Numbered from the stretch's first letter, positions 601 through 13,012 are shown. The stretch is DNA of 18,427 bases from Candidatus Hodarchaeota archaeon (GCA_016839815.1 JAEOTM010000151.1:1-18427), one strand, 5' to 3'. The notes: a model not told the origin generated them from the letters alone. Numbers and translations are program-made.

Positions 601-625
601 CCTGCAGTATTCCAATCATTTTTAA
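601..625 (+). promoter_or_regulatory. Putative promoter module (upstream motif + TATA box) of the MacB-like permease
   Basis: CCTGC-AGTATTC-CAATCA-TTTTTAA; 16/25 identical, ungapped, to the module at 10896. Confidence 0.45.
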
Positions 626-696
626 ATCGCAGCTTAACAATTTTTACAGAAAGATTAGTCAAAAATTTGATAGATTAGGGCAGCAATTCTTACGTT

Positions 697-3459
697 GTGG
701 ATTCAATGTTAACTTTAGCAATACGAAATATTCAACGATCAAAATGGCGTTCGTTCCTCCTAATATTTGGTATTCTAGTTACGATTGCATTGGAGACAGG
801 TATCGTTGTCACAGTTGATACTATTTTTGAGGATTTTCTTTATGATAACAGAAATCAGAATTATACTGATATCACAGTCAATCCAAAATCTTGGATTGAA
901 TTAGAAGATCTCCGAGAAATTACTAAAACAATTGGTTCATTATCAGGTGTTAGTAAAGCATCTGAAGTTTATTACCTATCTACAGATCTAATAAAAAACC
1001 AATCAGGAGATTGGATAAATCCGTTGATTTATGGAATAAATCACCATACTCACCCTGATTACAACTCCTTGAATTTAATTGATGGATCCCTATCCCTTGG
1101 TGGGACTTCGATACTTATTTCCCAAGCAATTCAAGATGCTATAGGTGTCTCAATAAATGGAGAGCTAGTAATACAGGAGCAAAATGATATTGGGTTTACG
1201 GGTATTACATTGAGAGTTGCGGGTATTTTTTCTACTCCACCCTTCTTTGGTAACAGAGAAGATCCATTAGTAATACTAATGGATATCGAAACTCTATTAG
1301 AGTCTTTTCAGGTATCAGAATCAGCTGATGCTTTGAGGAGTAAAATAGATATTCGGACGTCGAACTTGTTAAAAATTGATAAGGTAGCTGATCGAATCAG
1401 GGATACTATTGGACCAGAATATAGTGTTTATGTTGAGAAATACATCTCTGAATTCCAATCCCTCGGAATTTCTGCGTACACTGCAGCTATGAATCTGATA
1501 ATACTTGCATCTCTTCTTATGGAATTTCTCTTTTTAACAAATATACTAACGATGGCTATTCGGGAAAGACAAAAAGAACATGGAATTCTAAGGACCGTTG
1601 GTATAAGTTCTAAACAATTATTTCTGGTAATCATTAACGAAATACTCATTTATTCTATTATTGGGGTTCTATTTGGAATTATAGTTGGAATCGGATTTGC
1701 TAATCTCTTAGTGGACACTTTGGATCAATATTATTCCAGTTTTGAATTTCGTGATATATTAATCAAATCTTCGTCTATATTTGTGATTGCTTTATCGGGA
1801 CTAATAATCGCTTTACTATCTGGAATATATCCAATTTATATTGCCCTCAAAGTACCTGTAATCAGAAATATCCATTATCGGATGAGAAGTTCAGATGATT
1901 CACTTATTAGAAATTATTGGAAATATACGTTAATATTTGGGGCAATACTGGCCATTTCTGGATTTATTTTTTCCTTATTTACTAGTCCTGCTGGATTTTT
2001 AGAATTCTCTATTTTTTCAAATCATTTTCTTGTAATAATCTATATTTTCATTGGAACTTTGTTGATTGAGGCAGGATTACTCGTATTATTGCCTAGAATC
2101 GGTGAAAAATTTTTGATTATTTTCAATAAAGTACCTCGTCAAATTTCTATGCGTAATATCCGTCGAGAATTTCATAAATCGTTATTTACTGTGATCTCTT
2201 TCTCTGTAGCAATTGCATTTATCATTCTCGTGGGAATTGTATCCAATGTTGTTATTATTAGTGTACCAGAATTCTATGAAGATCAGTGGGGATCCATTGA
2301 TCTTGTTGCAGAAACTAATGATGCTAATTCCCTCCCTTTGAACTTTACTGAAGAACTTGTGTCCAATGAACGTATCAAGCGGGCTTCATATATACAAGAA
2401 TCACGTATAACAATCGATTCAGTTAGTACTAATGTTTATGGGGTTGATCCAATGCAGTATTCTGAATTTCGTGAGATAACTTACGAAAAAATATCCTCAG
2501 AATTAAGTCATCAATTGCTTTCGAAAAATTCCTCATATGGGACTAATGCATTAGTTTCTGATATTCTATATAATTCGCTTGATGTTTCCTTGGGGGAGAA
2601 TATTTTGCTTAAATTTCCTTCGTTACCCTCTGTAAATATCACAATAGCAGCTGTAATAAAAGGAAACTCCTTTTTGGGAAATGGGAGGTATCTTTACTTA
2701 GCCTCAACTCATTTCCAAAGATTTTTTAATACTACAAGGGCAAAAATCTTTATTTGTGATGTTTACGAAGGTTTAGACATCCATGAAGCGCAAAGGAATA
2801 TATCCCGTTCATATCCAATTTTCAATGAAGTTTTCGGGGTGGATTATTATCGAGATGTGATTGAGCGAAGTTTAAAATTTCAAGCGAATTTATTTCAAGT
2901 CTTGGTTATGGAATCGTTTATTCTTGCAGGATTAGCTCAATTTGTAAGTATATTAATATCCACAATAAACACAGAAAGAGAAATGGGAATAATTAGAAGT
3001 ATGGGATTAACACGATGGGGAGTATTTAGCATTTATTTTGCCGAATCAACAACATTAGGAATTTGCTCATTAGTTATTGGATTAGTGGATGGCGTACTTG
3101 GAGCAGTTCTACTACTTTGGTATTTATCCTCAAGTATCCCGATTCAGATGGTACTTCCACTGGATCATATCCTCACATGGATTATCTTTGCTTTCATTCT
3201 TACACTCATAAGTACAATCGTTCCTGCTCTCCGGTCGAGTAAAAATGATATTGCAGCCACGATTTCTGCAAGACCAATCAAACTGATTCCAGATAAAAAA
3301 GGGAAATTACAGAAGGCTACTTCTTTTCTTCGGAAAATTGGCAATCTTTTCTATTATGCGCTTTTAATTGTTGTGGCATATTTTATACTAGTTTTCTCAA
3401 TTTTAATAATTGGATATATTATTGTATTTATTTTGTGGTTTTTTAATGATGTCTTTTAA
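697..3459 (+). CDS. MacB/FtsX-like (type VII) ABC transporter permease with two permease repeats
   Basis: N-terminal LAIRNIQRSKWRSFLL and internal SMRNIRREFHKSLFT; two FtsX signatures (RERQKEHGILRTVGIS, EREMGIIRSMGLT); two large extracellular domains. GTG start at 697 or ATG at 706. Confidence 0.9.
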   Translation: MDSMLTLAIRNIQRSKWRSFLLIFGILVTIALETGIVVTVDTIFEDFLYDNRNQNYTDITVNPKSWIELEDLREITKTIGSLSGVSKASEVYYLSTDLIKNQSGDWINPLIYGINHHTHPDYNSLNLIDGSLSLGGTSILISQAIQDAIGVSINGELVIQEQNDIGFTGITLRVAGIFSTPPFFGNREDPLVILMDIETLLESFQVSESADALRSKIDIRTSNLLKIDKVADRIRDTIGPEYSVYVEKYISEFQSLGISAYTAAMNLIILASLLMEFLFLTNILTMAIRERQKEHGILRTVGISSKQLFLVIINEILIYSIIGVLFGIIVGIGFANLLVDTLDQYYSSFEFRDILIKSSSIFVIALSGLIIALLSGIYPIYIALKVPVIRNIHYRMRSSDDSLIRNYWKYTLIFGAILAISGFIFSLFTSPAGFLEFSIFSNHFLVIIYIFIGTLLIEAGLLVLLPRIGEKFLIIFNKVPRQISMRNIRREFHKSLFTVISFSVAIAFIILVGIVSNVVIISVPEFYEDQWGSIDLVAETNDANSLPLNFTEELVSNERIKRASYIQESRITIDSVSTNVYGVDPMQYSEFREITYEKISSELSHQLLSKNSSYGTNALVSDILYNSLDVSLGENILLKFPSLPSVNITIAAVIKGNSFLGNGRYLYLASTHFQRFFNTTRAKIFICDVYEGLDIHEAQRNISRSYPIFNEVFGVDYYRDVIERSLKFQANLFQVLVMESFILAGLAQFVSILISTINTEREMGIIRSMGLTRWGVFSIYFAESTTLGICSLVIGLVDGVLGAVLLLWYLSSSIPIQMVLPLDHILTWIIFAFILTLISTIVPALRSSKNDIAATISARPIKLIPDKKGKLQKATSFLRKIGNLFYYALLIVVAYFILVFSILIIGYIIVFILWFFNDVF

Positions 3460-3522
3460 GAATAAACCAAAGTATTGAACAATTAAAGTCAAAAGGATTC
3501 TTCAATCCTGAAAGACATACGT

Positions 3523-3945
3523 TTAATAAGATTTTAGAGCAAACTCGTTTATTAAGACACCAAACATTGTACCTAGGATGTAAATTGGAAACATAAGGAA
3601 AAACAAAGGTAAAGTTTCTCCTATTTGTTGGTAGGCAAAAACATCGCTCTGTGATGGAAAAACTCCTAGTAATGCTGGAGTTATACGAGCGAATAAGATC
3701 AGAAAAAGAGAACCCATTAAAGACATAATCATTGCTAGAATGGATTCCTGGATTTCCTCATTGAGTAAACCAATATAGATCGCAGGTACTATAATGATAA
3801 AACCAGCAGAAACCTGGGTTAATGGAAGAATTTTGGTGTATGAAGAATGAATTATTGCACTTGTAACTATAGTTCCCCCTATGGATGAAATTAAGAACTC
3901 CTTCTTCTTAATGACCCTTTCAAGTGCATTTATTCTTTCATTCAT
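3523..3945 (-). CDS. Hypothetical membrane protein (about 4 TM), probably co-transcribed with oppB
   Basis: 140-aa ORF starting 7 nt after the oppB stop; four hydrophobic segments. Confidence 0.8.
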   Translation of the reverse strand: MNERINALERVIKKKEFLISSIGGTIVTSAIIHSSYTKILPLTQVSAGFIIIVPAIYIGLLNEEIQESILAMIMSLMGSLFLILFARITPALLGVFPSQSDVFAYQQIGETLPLFFLMFPIYILGTMFGVLINEFALKSY

Positions 3946-3952
3946 GATATAA

Positions 3953-4960
3953 TCACAGGTACTTGATTCTAGGATCCAATATACCGTAAAGTAAATCCGC
4001 TAGGATATTTGCTATGATTACCGTTATTGAAATCAACCAGAATAAGGCCTGTGATACAGGCCAATCATTTTCAATGAGTGAAGTGAATAGAAGTCGTCCC
4101 ATACCATACCAAGCAAAGACAGTCTCTGTTAATATTGCTCCACTTACTATGTATGCAAAGCTAATCGCAATAACAGTAATGAGGGGTAAGAAAGCATTGC
4201 GTACTGCATGCTTATAGAGTACTGTACGCTCCTGTAGACCCTTTGCTTTCGCAGTGAGAATATAATCTTCATTGAGAACATCCACTAAAGTATTACGCAT
4301 GAGAAGCATATAGCCTCCAAAGAATGCCAGAGTTAGTGTAACTACAGGTAAGGTTAGGTGCCAAATAAGATCCCACAATTGTTCAAGTGAAGTCATATTC
4401 CGCCAAACATCAGGAGAACTCTTTGTATGGCCGAGTGGAAAGATAGGAAAAATGTAAGCGAAGACCATGAGTAGCATCATTCCTAACCAAAACACAGGGA
4501 AACTGTACAACGAAAGACCTACGGTAATTAATCCAGTATCAAGTTTACCTCCATGACGACTAGCTGCCCAAATGCCAGCTACTACTCCCACAATAATCGC
4601 TAAAATTGTTGAAGTTCCCATTAATAAGAGAGTATTTGGAAGACGTTCGGTAATCTCATCAGTGACTGGACCAAATGAAGTGAAACTTCGTCCGAAATTA
4701 AGAGTCAGCATATTCTGCATATACTTGATAAAATGATCAAACCACGGCCAAAATCCAGCACCTCGTTCAGGTATTCCATAGATGACTCGTAATCTCTCTA
4801 TCACTTCAGCATCCATTTGAGGATCTGTATATAGCGTCATTGGATCTCTTCCAAGCATAAAAATTGGTAGCCGGAAAATGAAAAAATTGAACACTAAGAC
4901 CGCAAGAAACAAAAACACCGCAATAGTAACTCGTTTTAGTAAGTAACTTCGTAAGCTCAT
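3953..4960 (-). CDS. oppB: Oligopeptide/dipeptide/nickel ABC transporter permease OppB/DppB
   Basis: YLLKR N-terminus, NFGRSF, ERLPNTLLL, EAA motif EDYILTAKAKGL, HAVRNA, ILTETVFAWYGMG, C-terminal LDPRI; RBS AGGAGA at 4970-4965. Confidence 0.95.
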   Translation of the reverse strand: MSLRSYLLKRVTIAVFLFLAVLVFNFFIFRLPIFMLGRDPMTLYTDPQMDAEVIERLRVIYGIPERGAGFWPWFDHFIKYMQNMLTLNFGRSFTSFGPVTDEITERLPNTLLLMGTSTILAIIVGVVAGIWAASRHGGKLDTGLITVGLSLYSFPVFWLGMMLLMVFAYIFPIFPLGHTKSSPDVWRNMTSLEQLWDLIWHLTLPVVTLTLAFFGGYMLLMRNTLVDVLNEDYILTAKAKGLQERTVLYKHAVRNAFLPLITVIAISFAYIVSGAILTETVFAWYGMGRLLFTSLIENDWPVSQALFWLISITVIIANILADLLYGILDPRIKYL

Positions 4961-5031
4961 AATATCTCCTCTACGCTTTACTCAAGGTTTTACTTAAAGG
5001 TAGTAAACATATGAAACTTCATAAAGGGGAA

Positions 5032-5060
5032 ATCTTTATAAAGATATAGATTGGAGCAAT
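5032..5060 (-). promoter_or_regulatory. oppB promoter module containing a palindromic, possibly bidirectional, TATA box
   Basis: Minus strand 5060-5036 reads ATTGC-TCCAATC-TATATC-TTTATAA; ATCTTTATAAAGAT (5032-5045) is a perfect palindrome between divergent genes. Confidence 0.6.
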
Positions 5061-5082
5061 TTTCATTTGGATAAGACCGAAA

Positions 5083-5310
5083 ATGACTGAAGAACATGAA
5101 GGAAGAGCTATTGTCGCGACCCATGCAACATTGAAGTGGTTCATAGTAATTGGTGTAATCCTCGGAGTCATTGGTATTGTAATTTATACAGTTATAACTC
5201 CTTTCATTGGCTCTATTGTAATCTTATTAGGGTTTATCCTAATTGCTCTCTGTACCATCTCATTACTATTTCTGTGGTTAACCGAAAGAATGCTTCCACA
5301 ACCAAAGTAA
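5083..5310 (+). CDS. Small 2-TM hypothetical protein
   Basis: 75 aa, ATG start, two hydrophobic helices, fills the intergenic gap, TATA box about 45 nt upstream. Confidence 0.7.
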   Translation: MTEEHEGRAIVATHATLKWFIVIGVILGVIGIVIYTVITPFIGSIVILLGFILIALCTISLLFLWLTERMLPQPK

Positions 5311-5426
5311 AATATCATAATAATGATATTTTCTACTAGTTAAGACGATAGATGAATTTCCTGTAATTAGGAACCTTTCGAGGTCACTTCCTATTTTAAT
5401 ACGCATTTTAGTTGAATTTTTAAGGT

Positions 5427-5942
5427 TTAGAATATTGGCAATGAGGGGGGATTTATAGTAACACCTGTAAACTCCTGTGATCGATCATATTGCCCTGATT
5501 CTAGTAAGCTAGATTCTAGATTCACAGTAATTGTAAAGCTCCAATTCCAATTATTAGATGAATTAGCTTCACTGAAAATTTCGACAAACTGTGGTAAGAT
5601 ATCATAAGTTAAGATGATCGTCCTATGAGATTGAGCAGGTATCGTTATAATCAACCAATGAACTTTCCGAAGATATTCTGACCCTTCACCATTTAAAACA
5701 ACAACATTTTCAATGGATTTAAGTCGAACAGATGAAAACCAAGAGGGATTCGAAAAATCTCCAGTGAGTCTAAAATTGTCAAAGTGGCCAGAACTGTTCC
5801 GAGAAATGGATACATCCAACACTTGGAACCTCATACACATAACGGTTTGATAAGAATCTATTTCGTATATTGTGGAGTACGCTAACATCACAGAAGAAAC
5901 AACGACGATGATACTCCATGTGACTAATATAATCCGTCTCAT
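5427..5942 (-). CDS. Membrane-anchored/secreted hypothetical protein, possibly LEA_2-like beta-sandwich
   Basis: N-terminal signal/anchor MRRIILVTWSIIVVVSSVMLA; beta-strand pattern with FSNPS...VRLKSIENVVVLNGE and TIPAQSHRTIILT, resembling LEA_2/WHy domains (pattern recognition only). Confidence 0.7.
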   Translation of the reverse strand: MRRIILVTWSIIVVVSSVMLAYSTIYEIDSYQTVMCMRFQVLDVSISRNSSGHFDNFRLTGDFSNPSWFSSVRLKSIENVVVLNGEGSEYLRKVHWLIITIPAQSHRTIILTYDILPQFVEIFSEANSSNNWNWSFTITVNLESSLLESGQYDRSQEFTGVTINPPSLPIF

Positions 5943-6024
5943 CCTATCAAACCCTATTTACTTCTCAATTGAATTTCGACTAGTGATATCATATATCTAG
6001 ATCACACACTTTCTGGTTGTAGTA

Positions 6025-6049
6025 TTAATAAGCTTTTGAATGGTGCAAT
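6025..6049 (-). promoter_or_regulatory. Promoter module of the 171-aa gene
   Basis: Minus strand ATTGC-ACCATTC-AAAAGC-TTATTAA; 18/25 identical to the module at 10716. Confidence 0.6.
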
Positions 6050-6064
6050 AATCGTCAATTCTTC

Positions 6065-6155
6065 TTTGTCACAATCTATAGATTAATAAGTGGGCTTTAG
6101 ACAACGCTACAGACTGATAATATCGATATTATTGGAAAATCCTACAACTTTAAAA
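6065..6155 (+). promoter_or_regulatory. Two promoter modules and a 16-bp palindrome upstream of oppC
   Basis: TTTGT-CACAATC-TATAGA-TTAATAA (6065-6089) and ATTGG-AAAATCC-TACAAC-TTTAAAA (6131-6155); palindrome ATAATATCGATATTAT (6117-6132). The proximal TATA starts 29 nt before the GTG, consistent with a near-leaderless mRNA. Confidence 0.55.
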
Positions 6156-6177
6156 TAGCATTTATATTTGATACACG

Positions 6178-7686
6178 GTGTTTGTTTTGAAAAAACGGAA
6201 AATTGCTCATCGTAGAAGTCGAAAAGATCAGTTTGTGGTGACATGGAAGAGATTTTATGAGGTTAAGCATGGCGTTGTTGGAATTATCATCGTAACCATC
6301 TTTATTGCAATGGCGTTAAGTGCACCAACATTATTTCCCCGCTATCCAGGAGAATTAGCTCGTGTAGGTCCAAACTATGCTGCACCTTCTTGGACTCGCT
6401 TTACAGACCCTAACGCGCCACCATTAAAGAATTATCTACCAGATACGGAATTTAAAGACGAAACAGCGTGGAATATGAGTGTTACAAATTATTATACTGG
6501 ATTTCCAGATGATCATGGATCATTTTCTTATGATACTACGGATTTCACTGCTGGTAACCAATCATTGAAGCTTACACTTACAGACAACAGTGAATCAGCC
6601 TATTATCCCACTAATGTCAAAGCAGTCACCTCTTTCCATTATGATTACTCAACTCCGACTTGGGTAACTGTAAATTATGATATGAAATCCAATCTAACTG
6701 GTGATCTGAATCCGAATTCAGTTGTTCCTTATATTCGATTGACAATGCCACCTGAAGCTATTGAGGATTTAGGTCCATATGCAGAGACTTTATCACGGAT
6801 TGATACTAGGCCACGATATCCTACTGAATGGACATCCTATTCTCGAAATATTACTTTCCTCGCCTATTATTATATTTTTCAACCTAACTCAACTGTTACC
6901 TTTGAGTTTGGATTAGAATACTCAAGAACGAGTGTAAATGCATCTGAAACTGGGAATGCAGAATTTTGGTTTGATAACGTTGAAATTATCTGTTTCCCCT
7001 CCTTTTGGGGTCCTCTTGGGACTACCGATAAAGGTCAAGACGTTATGGCCCAATTATTTTGGGGATGCCAAGTTTCACTCTATGTAGGTATCATCGCGAC
7101 CGTTATTGGTGTTGTAGTAGGCCTTATTGTGGGATTAGTAGCTGGCTATTTCTCTGGCATTATAGATGAGCTTCTTATGCGAATAGTCGACTTTTTCTTA
7201 ATAATACCCACATTACCTATCATGATGGTTCTCGCAGCTGTCCTGAGTCCGAGTTTAGAAGTGACTACAATGATTATTGCAATTTTTGCTTGGCCTGGAC
7301 CATCTCGAGTAATTCGGTCACAAGTATTGGTGGAAAAAGAAAAGGCGTATGTTGAAGCAGCTAAAGCCGCTGGTGCAGGTGATGTATACGTTATTTTCAA
7401 GCACGTTTTCCCGAACGTACTCACCTTAGTATTTGTTCAACTAGCAACTGGTGTTTCAGGAGCCATTCTTGCAGAATCAGGTTTGAGTTTCTTAGGATTA
7501 ACACCGCAGAATCTAGTATCCTGGGGACATATGCTTCAGGCAAGTTATGCAACGGGTGCTTTGTTAAACGGAGCTTGGTGGTTTGTTATCCCCCCAGGGC
7601 TAATGATCGTGTTGCTATCAATGGGATTTGTATTTATTGGCTATGCTGTTGATATTGCAATGAATCCACGACAACGAAAACTATAA
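6178..7686 (+). CDS. oppC: Oligopeptide/dipeptide ABC transporter permease OppC/DppC with a large inserted extracellular domain
   Basis: PLGTTDKGQDV, SLYVG, LMRIVDFFLIIP, EAA motif YVEAAKAAGA, HVFPN, ESGLSFLGL, SWGHML, WWFVIPPG, NPR; about 190-aa insertion after TM1. Confidence 0.95.
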   Translation: MFVLKKRKIAHRRSRKDQFVVTWKRFYEVKHGVVGIIIVTIFIAMALSAPTLFPRYPGELARVGPNYAAPSWTRFTDPNAPPLKNYLPDTEFKDETAWNMSVTNYYTGFPDDHGSFSYDTTDFTAGNQSLKLTLTDNSESAYYPTNVKAVTSFHYDYSTPTWVTVNYDMKSNLTGDLNPNSVVPYIRLTMPPEAIEDLGPYAETLSRIDTRPRYPTEWTSYSRNITFLAYYYIFQPNSTVTFEFGLEYSRTSVNASETGNAEFWFDNVEIICFPSFWGPLGTTDKGQDVMAQLFWGCQVSLYVGIIATVIGVVVGLIVGLVAGYFSGIIDELLMRIVDFFLIIPTLPIMMVLAAVLSPSLEVTTMIIAIFAWPGPSRVIRSQVLVEKEKAYVEAAKAAGAGDVYVIFKHVFPNVLTLVFVQLATGVSGAILAESGLSFLGLTPQNLVSWGHMLQASYATGALLNGAWWFVIPPGLMIVLLSMGFVFIGYAVDIAMNPRQRKL

Positions 7687-7711
7687 TCAAACATAGAAAA
7701 ATGGTGATAAA

Positions 7712-8713
7712 ATGTCTCTTCAAGTAAAGGATCTTAAAATTTACTATTGCATGAAACGTGGAGATTGTAAAGCAGTCGAGGATATATCTTTCAATATCGA
7801 AAAAGGAGAATCCGTAGGATTGGTTGGGGAATCTGGATGTGGAAAGAGTACTGTAGCTTATAGTATATTACGAATGCTACCTTTTCCTGGACAAATTGTT
7901 GATGGAAAAATATGTCTTGATGAAGAAGATCTAAGCTCTTTAACAGAAGAAGAAATGCGGAAATATAGATGGGCTAAAATAGCTATGGTATTTCAAGGAG
8001 CAATGAATGCACTTAATCCGATAATCCGGGTCAAAGAACAAATAACAGAAGCTATTCGACAGCATGAACCTAATGTCTCAAAAAAAGAAGCTTTAGAGAG
8101 AGCTCGTGAATTATTTAAATTAGTAGGGATGGATCCAAATCGAATAAACAATTATCCTTTCGAATTCAGTGGGGGGATGAAACAACGTGCGATGATTGTT
8201 ATGGCGTTGGCATGTAATCCCAAATTTCTAATTGCGGATGAACCAACCACGGCTCTAGATGTCACAGTTCAAGCTCAAATCATGGAGCTTCTTCGAAAAC
8301 TTGTTGAAGACCTTGGAATCACCCTAATGCTGATAACTCACGACCTTTCTGTAGTAGCTGAAACATGTAAGAGGGTAATCATTATGTACGCTGGTAAAAT
8401 AGTGGAGTCTGGATCGGTGCTTGAAATTTTTGCTCAACCTCTACATCCATACTCCCAAGGTTTAATAGCTTCAATCCCCTCGATTGAAAAATCACGAGAT
8501 CAAGCATTAGCCTCAATTCCAGGACAGCCACCTAATCTTCTTGAACCTCCAACAGGATGTCGTTTCCATCCACGATGTCAATATAGTCAAGAAATTTGTA
8601 GTACTGAAGATCCACCCGTAGAAGAAATAGAACCAGATCATTATGTAGCATGCCACCTCTCATCAGGGCGTATTGTATCAGAAAAGTATAATCGTGTCAT
8701 TCGGAATGAGTAA
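7712..8713 (+). CDS. oppD: Oligopeptide/dipeptide ABC transporter ATP-binding protein OppD/DppD
   Basis: Walker A GESGCGKS, FSGGMKQR, ADEPTTALDVTVQAQI, H-loop ITHD, C-terminal HPY and GCRFHPRC; RBS GGTGA upstream. Confidence 0.97.
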   Translation: MSLQVKDLKIYYCMKRGDCKAVEDISFNIEKGESVGLVGESGCGKSTVAYSILRMLPFPGQIVDGKICLDEEDLSSLTEEEMRKYRWAKIAMVFQGAMNALNPIIRVKEQITEAIRQHEPNVSKKEALERARELFKLVGMDPNRINNYPFEFSGGMKQRAMIVMALACNPKFLIADEPTTALDVTVQAQIMELLRKLVEDLGITLMLITHDLSVVAETCKRVIIMYAGKIVESGSVLEIFAQPLHPYSQGLIASIPSIEKSRDQALASIPGQPPNLLEPPTGCRFHPRCQYSQEICSTEDPPVEEIEPDHYVACHLSSGRIVSEKYNRVIRNE

Positions 8714-8715
8714 AA

Positions 8716-9768
8716 ATGATTAGTAATGAAGAACCTTTAGTATCTTGTCGTGGATTACGGAAATGGTTTCCAGTCCGAAACGATTTCTTTTCACAATTAA
8801 GAGGAAAAGAAATATGGTTGAAAGCTGTCGATAATATAGACCTTGATATATTTCAAAATGATATGTATTGTTTAGCTGGAGAATCTGGATGTGGAAAAAC
8901 CACAATAGGTAAATTACTAATAGGTTTACTAGAACCAACTGAAGGAACCGTAATTATTGAAGGAAATGACCTTACTACCTTAAATCGTAGGGAATTTAGA
9001 AAACTAAGAGCAAAGATTCAAACAATATTTCAAGATCCTTACTCATCATTAAATCCACGATTGAGTCTTTACGATACAGTATCAGAACCGTTACGATTAA
9101 ATAAATTGGTTTCATCAAAAGATGAAGAGGAGGAGCGTGTTGTAAAAGCGTTTGAAGCTGTTCAACTTGCTCCAGCAGAAGAATTCACTTTTCGATATCC
9201 ACATGAGCTCAGTGGAGGCCAGCGTCAAAGAGTCGCAATTGCACGAGCAATTGTTGTAAATCCAAAATTTATTGTTGCAGATGAACCAGTCTCAATGCTT
9301 GATGTGTCTATCAGATCTGAAATCTTAAATCTCCTTCAAAATATACGTCAGGAATTTGGGATTGCTTATATATACGTTACACACGATTTATCAGTGGCTA
9401 GTTATATTGGAGATAAGATAGCAATTATGTACCTCGGAAAAGTTATGGAGCGAGGTTCGATTAAACAAGTCATACATGGGGCAGTACATCCCTACTCACG
9501 AGCATTAATCTCAGCTGTGCCATCTCCAAACCCCACAAGTATGCGAAAAAGAGAGATCCTTCCTGGAGAACCAGGAAATCCTATTAATCCTCCTCCAGGG
9601 TGTCTTTTCTCTCCGAGATGTAAATACGCAAAACAAAAGTGTTTCTCCGAGGAACCACCATTAGCGGAAGTAGAACTTGGGCATTTTTCATCATGCTGGT
9701 TCCCTCAAGAACCACTTCAGCTTGACTTTGATCCTAGTGAAACACTTGTGCAAACCTCTCAAAATTAA
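8716..9768 (+). CDS. oppF: Oligopeptide/dipeptide ABC transporter ATP-binding protein OppF/DppF
   Basis: GESGCGKT, FQDPYSSLNPR, YPHELSGGQRQR, ADEPVSMLDVSIR, HPY, GCLFSPRC. Confidence 0.97.
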   Translation: MISNEEPLVSCRGLRKWFPVRNDFFSQLRGKEIWLKAVDNIDLDIFQNDMYCLAGESGCGKTTIGKLLIGLLEPTEGTVIIEGNDLTTLNRREFRKLRAKIQTIFQDPYSSLNPRLSLYDTVSEPLRLNKLVSSKDEEEERVVKAFEAVQLAPAEEFTFRYPHELSGGQRQRVAIARAIVVNPKFIVADEPVSMLDVSIRSEILNLLQNIRQEFGIAYIYVTHDLSVASYIGDKIAIMYLGKVMERGSIKQVIHGAVHPYSRALISAVPSPNPTSMRKREILPGEPGNPINPPPGCLFSPRCKYAKQKCFSEEPPLAEVELGHFSSCWFPQEPLQLDFDPSETLVQTSQN

Positions 9769-9817
9769 TTTAATAAATATATGAAAGGACAATTAGAAAA
9801 TTGAGTATGATGGTTTT

Positions 9818-10213
9818 ATGATTCAAGAAATTATATTAGAGGAATTAGAATGCATCAATCAACTCCTCGACTTGTGTTTATACCGAATGAAAGATATTTT
9901 AGGTTCTAAGCCCAGAGATTTTCTTTGGCGAATGTTCTTTCCAGCAGGACAATTCATGCAACGAAAGTCAATTGCACGTAAAACTTCATATGAATTACTG
10001 AAACTTGATACAAGACTAAGAGAAATGGAACAGGTTTTAGAAGAGCGAGAACATCCAGTAAAACCGCAGATAAGTAAAATTCTTGACACAGATTTAGTAA
10101 TGATGTCTAGTAGGCTTGTGGATTTACCTGAACGAGCACAGTACATGATTTCACAAATTGAAAATATCAAATTTACTATTGAAAACGTTATTCGTGATTC
10201 TAAATTAAATTAA
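9818..10213 (+). CDS. Hypothetical soluble, probably helical protein
   Basis: 131 aa, ATG start, same strand 49 nt after oppF, amphipathic-helix composition; no recognisable motif. Confidence 0.7.
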   Translation: MIQEIILEELECINQLLDLCLYRMKDILGSKPRDFLWRMFFPAGQFMQRKSIARKTSYELLKLDTRLREMEQVLEEREHPVKPQISKILDTDLVMMSSRLVDLPERAQYMISQIENIKFTIENVIRDSKLN

Positions 10214-10277
10214 TTCACTTATGTATTCACAGAAATAAGCAGTAGAAAAATTTAGACAAATTTAAAGGAAGGATTGA

Positions 10278-10619
10278 ATCATTTCATCATCCAAAGAATA
10301 CAAAGTTGTTTATCGACGATGGGTATTAGTAATACCCTGTCTTCTGATTTTACTTGGGTTAATAATTCTAACATTCCAAGATACTGCTGATTCAGGTTTA
10401 ACAATTCTTTCTTACTTATTAATTCTTATAGGAATACTAACTCTTGGACCTCTTCTTGTAGGAATATTGGCAATATCTCTTTCTGCAAAAACAATAGCAA
10501 AATCTAGTCAAACTCAACCTTCGTTCCGCGAGCGAGTTGAAACATCAGAAAAATTAGTAGAAAACGCTACAATTAACGAAAAAGGGAGTACAGTTAATTC
10601 TCGAAAAAGTTTTGACTGA
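10278..10619 (+). CDS. Probable 2-TM protein with no canonical start codon (not in the ORF track)
   Basis: 113 open codons: IISSSKEYKVVYRRWVLVIPCLLILLGLIILTFQDTADSGLTILSYLLILIGILTLGPLLVGILAISLSAKTIAKSSQTQPSFRERVETSEKLVENATINEKGSTVNSRKSFD*. SD-like AGGAAGG at 10266-10272, ATC/ATT at 10278/10281, T-rich tract after the stop. Confidence 0.55.
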   Translation: MISSSKEYKVVYRRWVLVIPCLLILLGLIILTFQDTADSGLTILSYLLILIGILTLGPLLVGILAISLSAKTIAKSSQTQPSFRERVETSEKLVENATINEKGSTVNSRKSFD

Positions 10620-10715
10620 GTAAGTTCACAAGTTTTTCTTTCTTATCTAGGACTTATTTATTGTTTGAAGATCTTAAAATCATTCCATACAAGAATGATT
10701 TATTTTCATCTAATT

Positions 10716-10980
10716 ATTGCCACATTCAAATACTTTAAAAATAAATTTCATATATCATAAGCTTTAAATAGGGGAGTGGTATCCCTCCGTTTCTTTACTA
10801 GAAGTATTGCATCATTCACATTGTTTAAAAGCAAATTTCACTTATGGAAGGGTTTAAATATAAAAACTATAAAAGTGAGATTTTCACCTTTCCTAATTGC
10901 CACATTCCATTGATTTAAAAAGGCAAAAGAAGGTTTGTTTTTTTTTCTGGTAATTTCTTCACATATCAATGACTTTAAAA
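10716..10980 (+). repeat. Degenerate 90-bp-period repeat made of six TATA-containing 25-bp modules upstream of oppA
   Basis: ATTGC..CATTC......TTTAAAA at exactly 10716, 10806 and 10896; variant modules (TTCA...TTTAAA) at 10745, 10835 and 10956. Confidence 0.8.
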
Positions 10981-11004
10981 GGGTCTTACTATTGTTTCCA
11001 GTTC

Positions 11005-11086
11005 ATAGCATTGAATAAGAATTATGCTATCGATCCTATGTTATTTTCGAGGATCTTCCAAAAGATGGATAATAACCAAAAATTGG
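11005..11086 (+). promoter_or_regulatory. Putative structured 5' leader of oppA (four consecutive hairpins)
   Basis: ATAGCAT/ATGCTAT (11005-11030), GATCCT/AGGATC (11032-11055), TCCA/TGGA (11057-11069), CCAA/TTGG (11076-11086). Confidence 0.4.
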
Positions 11087-13012
11087 ATGAATGAAAAAAT
11101 GGGAAAAATAAAAATATTAACCCTAGGCACTGCATTGGCTGTGATGGCACTTGTGTGCTTCAGTACTGCTGTTGCCACACCAATGAGCTCTGCATCAGCT
11201 TTAATATGGACATCAGACTTCACTCCTCACGGAGCATACATTGATGAAATGGTATTTACTGTGTTTACAACCTCAGAAATTCCACAAGCAATGTTAGCCA
11301 TACAAGCTGGTGAACAGGATGCATATGATGAACGAGTATTAGCTAGTTACCTACCAAATCTCGTGAATGACCCTGATATTGATGTGAAGTATAGTTTAGG
11401 AAGTTCTTATCGAGTACTAGTATTAAACAGTCAGAAATTTCCGATTAACATTACTGGTTTCCGACGTGCAATGGCATTTGGAATGGACAAGTACAGAGTA
11501 AATACTGAAGCGATCGGTGGTGCTGGTGTACCATTGGACAGTTATGTTCCACTAGTTGCTACCGAATGGACAGTTGAAGATCAACTCACCACACATTTCT
11601 ATGACAAAGATATTGTATCTGCCAATGCTTCTTTGGAAGCCTCCGGATTTAGAGATCTTGATGGTGATGGCTATCGAGAATACGATGCTGATGATAGCGG
11701 TGATTGGTCTGCTGGTGATCTTGATGACGATGATCCCATGATGCAAGTTGAATTATGGCCTACTTTGGAATATGGTCCTGCAATTGCAGCTACATCTGTC
11801 ACTGCAGCAGGAATGCTAGAAATGGGTTTACATGCTACCGTTGTAGAGAAAGACTGGAATACTTTGGTTAATGCTATTGAACAAGGTGACCACTGGGTTG
11901 CCTGTTGGACAGAAAACATTCCTATAGTTAATCCCACTAAAGTATTGTACGATTATTACCGTACAGGGACTCCAGAAAATGTCCTTTATTATCGCTTTAG
12001 TAACGCCTCCATTGATGCTGTTCTTGATCAAATGAGTGCAGCAACCACTCCGGAAGATGTAAAAACTTACGCTCGACAAGCAACGCTGATGCTTGCCTAT
12101 GAACAGCCATTAATTGTCTGTTATAATGATGCAAATATCAATACTTACAGAACGGATAAATTCGAAGGATTCTTTGAATTTTCTGGTCTTGGATATACTA
12201 ATGGAGGAAATCCATATGTTGCTTCAAAAGTTCGTCTAAAAAGCGGTGAATTGGGTGGTGTATTCAAATACATCTTATCAGAAACACTAGATACAACAAG
12301 TTGTATTCTAACCTCAACTGGTTATGAAGATACTGTTATGCAATATGTCTATGAAACTCTCTGGAATATCGATCCAAATACTTGGGATCCAATTCCTGGA
12401 TTGGCATATGATTGGAGTATTGACGACACATCTGCAGGTGTTGGTGAAGCTTGGGTACAAGATGGACAAAAGTTCACATTCAACCTTTATGACAACGTAA
12501 CTTGGCACGATGGGACAGCTTTCACTTCTGAAGATGTAAAGTATTCCTTTGATACAGTTTGGCCCCAATCTCCCCAAAGGACTTCCGAAATGGATGATAT
12601 CTATCGTGTTGAAACACCAGATGCTTATACAGTGGAATTATATGTAAACAAAACAGGGTATTTCGAGTGGGCAGCCACAACTGATGGTGTTTATATCGTC
12701 CCCAAACACATCTGGACAGCTGGAGAAGCAGATTTCACAACCTTTATTCCAAATAACAATCAAATGGTTGGTACTGGTCCTTTCATGTGGAACGAGTATA
12801 CTCCTGGTGAATATATCAGCATGCTTCGCTATGATGATTGGCGCTGGGATATCCGAGAAACAATGGATGATACAACCACAGATGGTACTGGTCCAGATGA
12901 TACCACTACAACAGAAGACGACGATGGTGGCGCTCCAGGATTTGGATTATTCGCTGCTATTGCTGTTATCATCACATCTGGTGCTGTGTTTTCCAGACGA
13001 CGAAGAAAATAG
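11087..13012 (+). CDS. oppA: Family 5 (OppA/DppA-like) ABC substrate-binding protein, circularly permuted, with PGF-type C-terminal anchor
   Basis: Signal peptide begins at M22 (11087) or M26 (11099) of the 11024 ORF; SBP_bac_5 motifs FRRAMAFGMD, FTFNLYDNVTWHDGTAFTSEDVKYSF, VGTGPF; Thr/Asp linker then PGF-TM-RRRRK. Confidence 0.92.
   Translation: MNEKMGKIKILTLGTALAVMALVCFSTAVATPMSSASALIWTSDFTPHGAYIDEMVFTVFTTSEIPQAMLAIQAGEQDAYDERVLASYLPNLVNDPDIDVKYSLGSSYRVLVLNSQKFPINITGFRRAMAFGMDKYRVNTEAIGGAGVPLDSYVPLVATEWTVEDQLTTHFYDKDIVSANASLEASGFRDLDGDGYREYDADDSGDWSAGDLDDDDPMMQVELWPTLEYGPAIAATSVTAAGMLEMGLHATVVEKDWNTLVNAIEQGDHWVACWTENIPIVNPTKVLYDYYRTGTPENVLYYRFSNASIDAVLDQMSAATTPEDVKTYARQATLMLAYEQPLIVCYNDANINTYRTDKFEGFFEFSGLGYTNGGNPYVASKVRLKSGELGGVFKYILSETLDTTSCILTSTGYEDTVMQYVYETLWNIDPNTWDPIPGLAYDWSIDDTSAGVGEAWVQDGQKFTFNLYDNVTWHDGTAFTSEDVKYSFDTVWPQSPQRTSEMDDIYRVETPDAYTVELYVNKTGYFEWAATTDGVYIVPKHIWTAGEADFTTFIPNNNQMVGTGPFMWNEYTPGEYISMLRYDDWRWDIRETMDDTTTDGTGPDDTTTTEDDDGGAPGFGLFAAIAVIITSGAVFSRRRRK

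Follow-up and report, generated by a model that had tools for sequence, protein, structure and literature searches.

What could allow the separate transcription units of a split oligopeptide ABC transporter to be controlled together in an archaeon? The question is raised by an 18,427-bp stretch of DNA (here called the window), which is the entire contig C123 of a metagenome-assembled genome, G000, from the Asgard order Hodarchaeales (4.24 Mb, 36% G+C; completeness 89.5%, contamination 7.8%). Hodarchaeales is the Asgard order placed closest to eukaryotes. To our knowledge, nothing experimental is on record about gene regulation in this order, and a literature search found no description of Hodarchaeales promoter motifs. 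In the window, a sharply bounded block of approximately 30 nt links four or five transcription units of the peptide importer: it comprises a 12-nt box, a short spacer and a TATA-like element. We consider it probable that the box is the operator, or upstream activating site, of one dedicated transcription factor for the transporter.

In G000, the box reads ATTGC-nn-CAwTC (12 nt) and is followed by six nucleotides of any sequence (N6) and a TATA-like heptamer. It occupies positions -18 to -7 from the TATA start, with the 6-nt spacer in the position of the TFB-recognition element (BRE). The strict core (ATTGCNNCAWTC) is found 37 times on both strands of the whole 4.24-Mb genome, five times in this contig. 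According to our own gene calls, which are crude (3796 open reading frames [ORFs], 88.6% coding), 6/37 cores are intergenic and 5/6 of these lie within the window, which holds 0.5% of the intergenic DNA (itself 11.4% of G000); a binomial test gives P = 2e-11 (6e-7 with the three oppA copies treated as one event). The full 25-mer (core, N6 and TTWWWAA) has five matches in G000, all in this contig, and the distance from box to TATA is identical in 5/5 strict copies. With one mismatch allowed, the window has 10 matches, compared to 2.85 +/- 1.78 in 200 shuffles. In a shuffle test that takes the post-hoc choice of motif into account (best over-represented word of the box shape in the window's intergenic DNA), the observed value was reached in 0/1000 shuffles. 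The evidence of the window alone is only moderately convincing; the case for the box becomes strong only with the fixed TATA spacing and the conservation of the box across genomes.

This conservation was assessed in the sister genome G018 (JAEOTC01...) and in six distant genomes (G005, G007, G021, G009, G011 and G014); OppC orthologues are present in 9/22 genus genomes, and synteny was examined in eight, G000 included. The block is found at the oppB and p171 promoters in 8/8 of these genomes, as wTTGC-N4-TTC, AAyAGA, (y)TTATTAA and TAC. The genus consensus of the box is wTTGC-wT-nn-TTC, usually followed by AA, the outer bases of which form an imperfect dyad, TTG-N7-CAA. In an alignment of the 16 promoters on the box, the positions from -40 to -3 hold 0.0-0.5 bit of information; box positions 2-5 and 11-12 reach 1.4-2.5 bits, values stay high across the spacer and TATA, and past approximately +29 they are near background (mostly 0.2-0.5 bit). 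The box lies 77-139 nt (oppB) or 107-127 nt (p171) from the start codon across the eight genomes, and the box-TATA spacer is N6-7 in 12 sites of the six distant ones. A non-circular 12-mer matrix, trained on these six genomes only (without G000 and G018), produced 25 matches of 7 bits or more in G000 that are intergenic and have a TATA 5-7 nt away; the window contains four of them (P = 8e-6).

The variants of the block also change together. A C8-A9 flavour of the box is specific to G000 and G018, where it is seen at oppB (G000 only), p171 and the three distal oppA modules. In G005, G007 and G021, the oppB and p171 promoters both have AATAGA as the spacer, and in G009, G011 and G014 both have AACArA; in a tree of OppB, OppD and OppF, G009 groups with G011 (support 89/91). 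Such parallel change at separate sites fits the prediction of co-evolution with a trans-acting reader.

The original prediction listed single copies of the 25-mer before oppB, p171 and the MacB-like permease gene, two before oppC and three before oppA, and all of these are present (Table 1). It had noted no clear copy before the ABC-2 exporter or the edge genes; our matrix scan agrees and finds none before feoA either. The copies differ in quality. The p171 module is identical to that of G018 at 25/25 positions, and the first oppC module, despite its degenerate box, at 24/25. These two boxes are arranged head-to-head, and in G018 they are parted by a 10-bp insertion, which corresponds to one helical turn. 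Related boxes (TTwrCAGATAyC, N6, TTAATAA) are found at the oppC promoters of G005, G021, G011 and G014. The second oppC copy did not hold up: G018 has TTCGGTT in place of its TATA, and it is weak and probably not a functional module. The macB-like copy, which had been called weaker, scores near background (8.2-9.6 bits, or 7.3 bits with the matrix trained on other genomes), and 1.6 chance matches at such a score (8-10 bits) are expected in the window. Yet when the macB upstream region is aligned with that of G018, CTGCAGTwTTC and the TATA stand out as conserved between drifting flanks, and other genomes have a TGCA box at equal distance from the macB TATA. As to the assertion that all copies are in the sense orientation, it is borne out at oppA; the genes of oppB/p75, p171/oppC and macB/edge gene diverge from each other, so that only at oppA does the direction of a copy carry information.

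Two further observations concern the gap between p171 and oppC. The oppC leader contains a perfect 16-bp palindrome, ATAATATCGATATTAT (6117-6132), which is unique in G000, lies 28-43 nt past the TATA start and has one central mismatch in G018; it may serve as a further operator or form a hairpin in the 5' leader. Conservation of the stretch 6025-6140 exceeds that of the flanking coding DNA.

The unusual part of the system is the six-module promoter array before oppA. Three strict modules (A1 to A3), which are plainly tandem duplicates, are interspersed with two degenerate ones (B1 and B2) and followed by the proximal oppA promoter (B3), with offsets of 0, 29, 90, 119, 180 and 240 nt (an approximately 30-bp lattice). 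All six are directed at oppA, and there is no gene in the reverse direction. G018 keeps the boxes, the TATA-like parts, the exact 90-bp phase and a T-rich tract between A3 and the proximal promoter; B3, the TATA of which is approximately 50 nt before the oppA ATG, is strongly conserved, and the B1 counterpart is ATTTCATCATTC, one base short of a strict box. A hairpin at 10770-10786 in the array is not conserved in G018. In G009, G011 and G007, oppA is preceded by CTTCATCAATC or TTTGTCCAAAC and then TATA, that is, by the proximal degenerate module only, with no strict boxes; the G005 oppA upstream region is not alignable and the array is absent. Because other genus members have the proximal degenerate module only, we infer that the array arose in the G000/G018 lineage.

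With modules only 29 nt apart, there is no room for an initiation complex on each of them at once, and the array therefore more likely concentrates the box-binding factor than acts as six promoters. Multiplication to six modules would probably increase binding of the factor in the region before the proximal promoter, and the T-rich tract is a candidate stop for transcripts started upstream. It is also conceivable, if quite unlikely, that the array is an enhancer-like loading platform for the factor together with TBP and TFB, which would feed or insulate the proximal promoter; assembly would be cooperative, possibly with archaeal histones or Lrp-type oligomers in 30-bp steps. If this is true, the archaeal order nearest to eukaryotes would have promoter control that uses several sites and acts at a distance. 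Downstream of the array, a 7-bp inverted repeat (ATAGCAT ... ATGCTAT, 12-nt loop; 11005-11030) is conserved in G018 and would pair the oppA start codon into a hairpin.

How far the box extends beyond the cluster bears on its nature. Among 800 sense-oriented intergenic TTTA[AT]A sites in G000, information is at most 0.17 bit at each of positions -30 to -1, and no clear BRE consensus emerges from the intergenic TATA sites of this genome. The 12-mer matrix has 146 intergenic versus 1811 coding matches in G000 (if anything, it is rarer in intergenic DNA), and the spacer and TATA version of the genus is not a common promoter form. The full pattern, with its five matches in G000, has 0-2 per genome in 21 genus genomes; a separate pattern search in 22 genomes gave 23 matches, versus 6 for a reversed control.

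A 25-mer matrix built from the window sites, which themselves score 22-29 bits, has its best G000 match outside the window on contig C93 (22.8 bits), before a tandem-GNAT acetyltransferase gene. The core of this box (TTGCCAyAA...) is kept before the orthologues in G018 and G021, making it the sole further credible G000 site outside the cluster. At this locus (G000:C93:1490-2549), the box and TATA are 97 nt before the GNAT gene, which is convergent with the gene for a 517-aa ArsR-type helix-turn-helix protein. The second outside match (20.0 bits) is before an M24 peptidase gene, for which no close orthologue was found in five relatives. A large peptide or proteolysis regulon was looked for and not found; the outside candidates head unrelated genes (GNAT, GNAT-OB, zinc-ribbon, ubiquitin-like, DUF998, beta-propeller and a major facilitator superfamily [MFS] fragment). 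The regulon that was originally proposed to coordinate a split transporter is retained in reduced form: it is very small and centred on the cluster, the box is at oppB and p171 in every cluster genome, and the independent matrix re-finds the window, but no enrichment at peptidase or proteolysis genes could be shown, the M24 peptidase being the lone candidate.

Elsewhere in the genus, G009 and G014 have exact ATTGCCACATTC with N6 and TATA at the head of a conserved locus that contains a small MJ1316-domain gene; close variants of the box occupy this position in G012, G007, G003 and probably G006. The box is followed by a conserved TCCCTGTTT in G009, G014, G007, G003 and G006, then by 170-250 nt without an ORF and by the 94-aa MJ1316-domain gene; ABC-exporter genes are next in G009. 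A membrane-protein gene carries a related box in G005 and G009. Neither locus was found in G000, and an Rfam scan of the window and the MJ1316 loci detected no known RNA family. The regulon is small and opp-cluster-centred, perhaps with a few lineage-variable extra targets.

If one factor reads the box, its action can be outlined. The box lies just beyond the BRE position, 5-7 nt from TATA, in each unit that it would serve: oppB-p140, p171, oppC-D-F-p131, oppA and probably the macB-like permease gene. There is one box per unit at a fixed TATA distance, and one factor could therefore switch the units together. Binding of a protein and an activating sign of regulation are predictions from the arrangement of the sites: by analogy with TFB-RF1 and Ptr2, archaeal activators that bind just beyond the BRE position (PMC5937170), the factor would most likely aid TBP/TFB loading. 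At oppB/p75, a single quasi-symmetric TATA, the sole one in the 122-nt gap, would serve both directions; a factor at the oppB box would sit between this TATA and the p75 start site, where it could repress p75 and at the same time drive oppB. The block could serve as bait in a search for the first specific transcription factor of this lineage, and as a defined promoter once reporter or in vitro systems become available.

G000 has approximately nine AsnC-type genes, all on other contigs and none in the window, and four TFB paralogues. Our guess is that an Lrp/AsnC-type reader would suit the TTG...CAA ends of the box, the steps of approximately 30 bp in the oppA array and the connection with the supply of peptides. 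One TFB paralogue (7544-8512, minus strand; locus G000:C135:5617-8512) and an OppA paralogue, which shares 49% identity with the OppA of the window, are arranged tail-to-tail; upstream of this OppA paralogue is an ATTGC box with a TATA-like TTTATTT 6 nt on.

Several points weigh against a dedicated factor. No DNA-binding protein is encoded in or adjoining the cluster, as judged from Pfam and the p131 fold, and the conserved neighbours in G009, G007 and G011 (an epimerase, hydrolases, endonuclease V and a 2205-aa protein) include no regulator. Dyad symmetry is weak and confined to the outer TTG/CAA pair, and orientation is not readable from the sequence in the three divergent gaps. The box is not uniformly maintained: in G018, the oppB module keeps ATTGC and the spacer while CAATC is replaced by GAAAC, and the oppB boxes of G009 (TTTACATATAAC) and G007 (TTTGCATTCATG) are degenerate. 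Gene conversion could also keep two promoters approximately 1 kb apart alike. Given that the oppA modules at 29-nt steps cannot all carry initiation complexes, their TATA-like parts may be non-promoter. Finally, with the oppA tandem triple collapsed, 27/1000 shuffles equal the observed value in the post-hoc-aware test. This last figure, along with the near-background scores of the copies at 601 and 6131, is what speaks for chance similarity among AT-rich promoters, an explanation that we find hardly credible: the TATA distance is fixed in 5/5 copies, the box has sharp boundaries at orthologous promoters of eight genomes, the independent matrix re-finds the window (P about 1e-5) and a control pattern has 0 matches versus 10.

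The remaining alternatives accept the box and dispute its role. On a reversed reading, it would lie between a quasi-symmetric TATA and the start site of the divergent gene (p75 opposite oppB, oppC opposite p171), as an operator or an initially-melted-region element, and its factor would be a repressor that blocks RNA polymerase. In favour of this are TATA elements close to symmetry (TTTATAAA; TTTATTAA read as TTAATAAA) and the lack of a second TATA in the 110-160-nt gap before p75. Read in reverse, the p75 start codon is 47-51 nt from the TATA (with AGGTGA preceding it in G007, G021, G009, G011 and G014), and at TATA + 6 + 12 nt the box would end where transcription is expected to start. This reading is nevertheless unlikely, as all six oppA modules face oppA with no gene opposite, the p171/oppC gap holds a separate conserved oppC TATA 34 nt further, and the spacer AAyAGA is purine-rich, and hence BRE-like, on the oppB/p171 sense strand; it is partly compatible with the dedicated factor that we favour, as a dual action at oppB/p75. 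We are similarly doubtful that there is no dedicated regulator and that the modules share a promoter 'flavour' through common descent, duplication or gene conversion, perhaps read by one of the four TFB paralogues. In favour of such a flavour, the conserved block takes in the BRE position, the TATA and three bases beyond, the oppA copies are tandem duplicates, and the oppB and p171 modules within a genome are often closer than orthologous modules. TFB contact, however, spans only approximately 6-7 bp upstream of TATA, and the best-conserved bases are beyond it, 14-17 nt upstream. Moreover, the module flanks share nothing (0.0-0.5 bit), such that a conversion tract would have to be exactly module-sized in eight genomes, and the macB, oppC and GNAT sites share the box and not the spacer/TATA version. 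The lineage-specific extended core-promoter element that the original prediction offered as its other option has the position of the box beside TATA in its favour and nothing else. For G000, it is refuted by the flat profile of the 800 TATA sites, the lack of intergenic enrichment, the restricted spacer and TATA version and the small number of full matches in G000, and we regard a lineage-wide element of this kind as extremely improbable.

Other archaea are already known to control transporter promoters through a factor site immediately before BRE/TATA, and the box is a new example of a well-known archaeal control element in Hodarchaeales. The closest parallel is the TFB-RF1 motif (TRBM) of Thermococcales (PF1088), a 13-nt palindrome, TCTGAAnTTCAGA, that precedes a weak BRE and TATA by a constant distance; its regulon comprises two operons, one of which is an ABC transporter, and the motif is conserved across Thermococcales (PMC5937170). 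Both are short dyad-type boxes whose spacing to the BRE and TATA downstream of them is fixed, and they have in common a tiny regulon, an ABC-transporter target and conservation at orthologous promoters of related genomes. In contrast to TRBM, the opp box has an unrelated sequence (wTTGCwTnnTTC(AA)) and a weak dyad, and it serves four to five separate units and a six-module array; TFB-RF1, which recruits TFB to the weak BRE, is encoded beside a target and activates its own operon, whereas the opp cluster is without a regulator gene.

Other known systems share fewer features. The Thermococcales glycolytic motif of TrmB/TrmBL1 (Tgr), TATCAC-N5-GTGATA, activates from upstream of BRE/TATA and represses from downstream of TATA. 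The likeness is in the target, a binding-protein-dependent ABC transporter, and in the geometry of oppB/p75, which would permit dual logic; the motif is different, however, the TrmB regulon is large and metabolic, and no TrmB-family gene is linked to the opp cluster. Operators of Lrp/AsnC (FFRP) proteins, such as Ss-LrpB and FL11, are imperfect 13-15-bp dyads with approximately 30-bp spacing, and E. coli Lrp controls opp. The opp box may resemble them in its TTG...CAA ends, an A/T-rich centre and the approximately 30-bp site steps before oppA, and it shares the connection to amino-acid or peptide supply. TTG-N7-CAA is present in 10/12 sites of the six distant genomes, in only some of the G000 copies and, in G018, in each of the three distal oppA modules; the inner dyad positions are mostly asymmetric, with most copies breaking the dyad at position 4/10. 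Unlike Lrp/AsnC sites, the lattice occurs before oppA only, with a single box elsewhere, and there is no AsnC gene near the cluster, although regulators of the AsnC family are often encoded next to their operators and autoregulated. The archaeal BRE, finally, consists of 6-7 nt abutting TATA at most promoters, where it sets or supports promoter direction and strength; like the BRE, the opp box is upstream of and close to TATA, but it lies 7-18 nt upstream and is confined to one cluster.

Table 1. Promoter modules, genes and other features, with positions in the window unless another contig is named
Feature	Position	Strand	Remarks
oppB module	5036-5060	-	box 5060-5049, spacer 5048-5043, TATA-like TTTATAA 5042-5036; 26.3 bits; 100 nt before oppB ATG
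p171 module	6025-6049	-	box 6049-6038, TATA TTATTAA 6031-6025; 26.6 bits; 107 nt before p171 ATG
oppC-1 module	6065-6089	+	degenerate box TTTGTCACAATC, spacer, TTAATAA; 22.3 bits; 113 nt before oppC GTG
Second oppC copy	6131-6155	+	13.2 bits when left out of training
macB-like module	601-625	+	CCTGCAGTATTC, N6, TTTTTAA; 96 nt before GTG 697
A1, distal strict module	10716-10740	+	box, N6, TTTAAAA; 29.4 bits; aligns with G018 module
B1, degenerate module	10745-10769	+	ATTTCATATATC, N6, TTTAAAT; 29 nt after A1; 9.3 bits
A2, distal strict module	10806-10830	+	90 bp after A1; box identical in G018
B2, degenerate module	10835-10859	+	29 nt after A2; sequence reading, below matrix threshold
A3, distal strict module	10896-10920	+	90 bp after A2; box identical in G018
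T-rich tract	10934-10946	+	TTTGTTTTTTTTT; between A3 and proximal promoter
B3, proximal oppA promoter	10956-10980	+	CTTCACATATC, N6, TTTAAAA; 7.7 bits
MJ1316 locus, G009 copy	G009:C1:4682776-4685800		
macB-like (MacB/FtsX-type permease)	697-3459	+	GTG at 697; flanks core cluster
p140, membrane protein	3523-3945	-	sequence reading
oppB	3953-4960	-	ATG 4960
p75, small membrane protein	5083-5310	+	ATG 5083; sequence reading
p171, N-terminal anchor	5427-5942	-	ATG 5942; sequence reading
oppC	6178-7686	+	GTG 6178
oppD	7712-8713	+	
oppF	8716-9768	+	
p131	9818-10213	+	last gene of oppCDF unit
oppA	11024-13012	+	ATG 11024; flanks core cluster
feoAB and ABC-2 exporter	downstream of oppA		
Conserved cluster core, p140..p131	3523-10213		Pfam; gene set recurs in seven other genomes

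The gene set is common to all eight genomes, with OppC identity of 59%-77% among them (59-69% for the six distant ones), and the layout can be written as macB-like / p131-oppF-D-C <> p171, p75 <> oppB-p140, oppA. The G018 cluster is wholly syntenic with that of G000, at approximately 75% nucleotide identity along the locus. In G007, G009 and G011, the order is oppA<-p100<-p140<-oppB / p75 / p171 / oppC-D-F-p131 -> <-macB; relative to these, the flanks are exchanged in G000 and G018 (macB -> ... -> p100, oppA), an arrangement that looks like the outcome of an inversion of the core block p140..p131. In G005, oppA and macB are side by side on a separate contig. The promoter module stays with each unit despite these changes of order between species at unit boundaries (window 697-13012 compared to relatives). 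A metagenome search for further relatives recovered two distant OppC loci and no more.

The shared box shows that p75, p131, p140 and p171 belong with the opp genes as one functional unit. No Pfam family was found for p140, p75 or p171. The p131 protein is confidently predicted to be a four-helix bundle (predicted local distance difference test [pLDDT] 90.5), and the model has no significant match in the PDB; its family consists of 24 homologues, nearly all in Hodarchaeales-labelled genomes, with an invariant W..FFP.GQF motif. This protein is a candidate cytoplasmic accessory of the transporter. A small membrane-protein gene (YRRW ... SFRER; 10274-10619 in the window) precedes oppA in all relatives. 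The G000 copy is open from 10278 and has no in-frame ATG, GTG or TTG before 10467, while its likely start, TTG 10274, falls in another frame; this may reflect an N-terminal frameshift, an assembly error or an unusual start.

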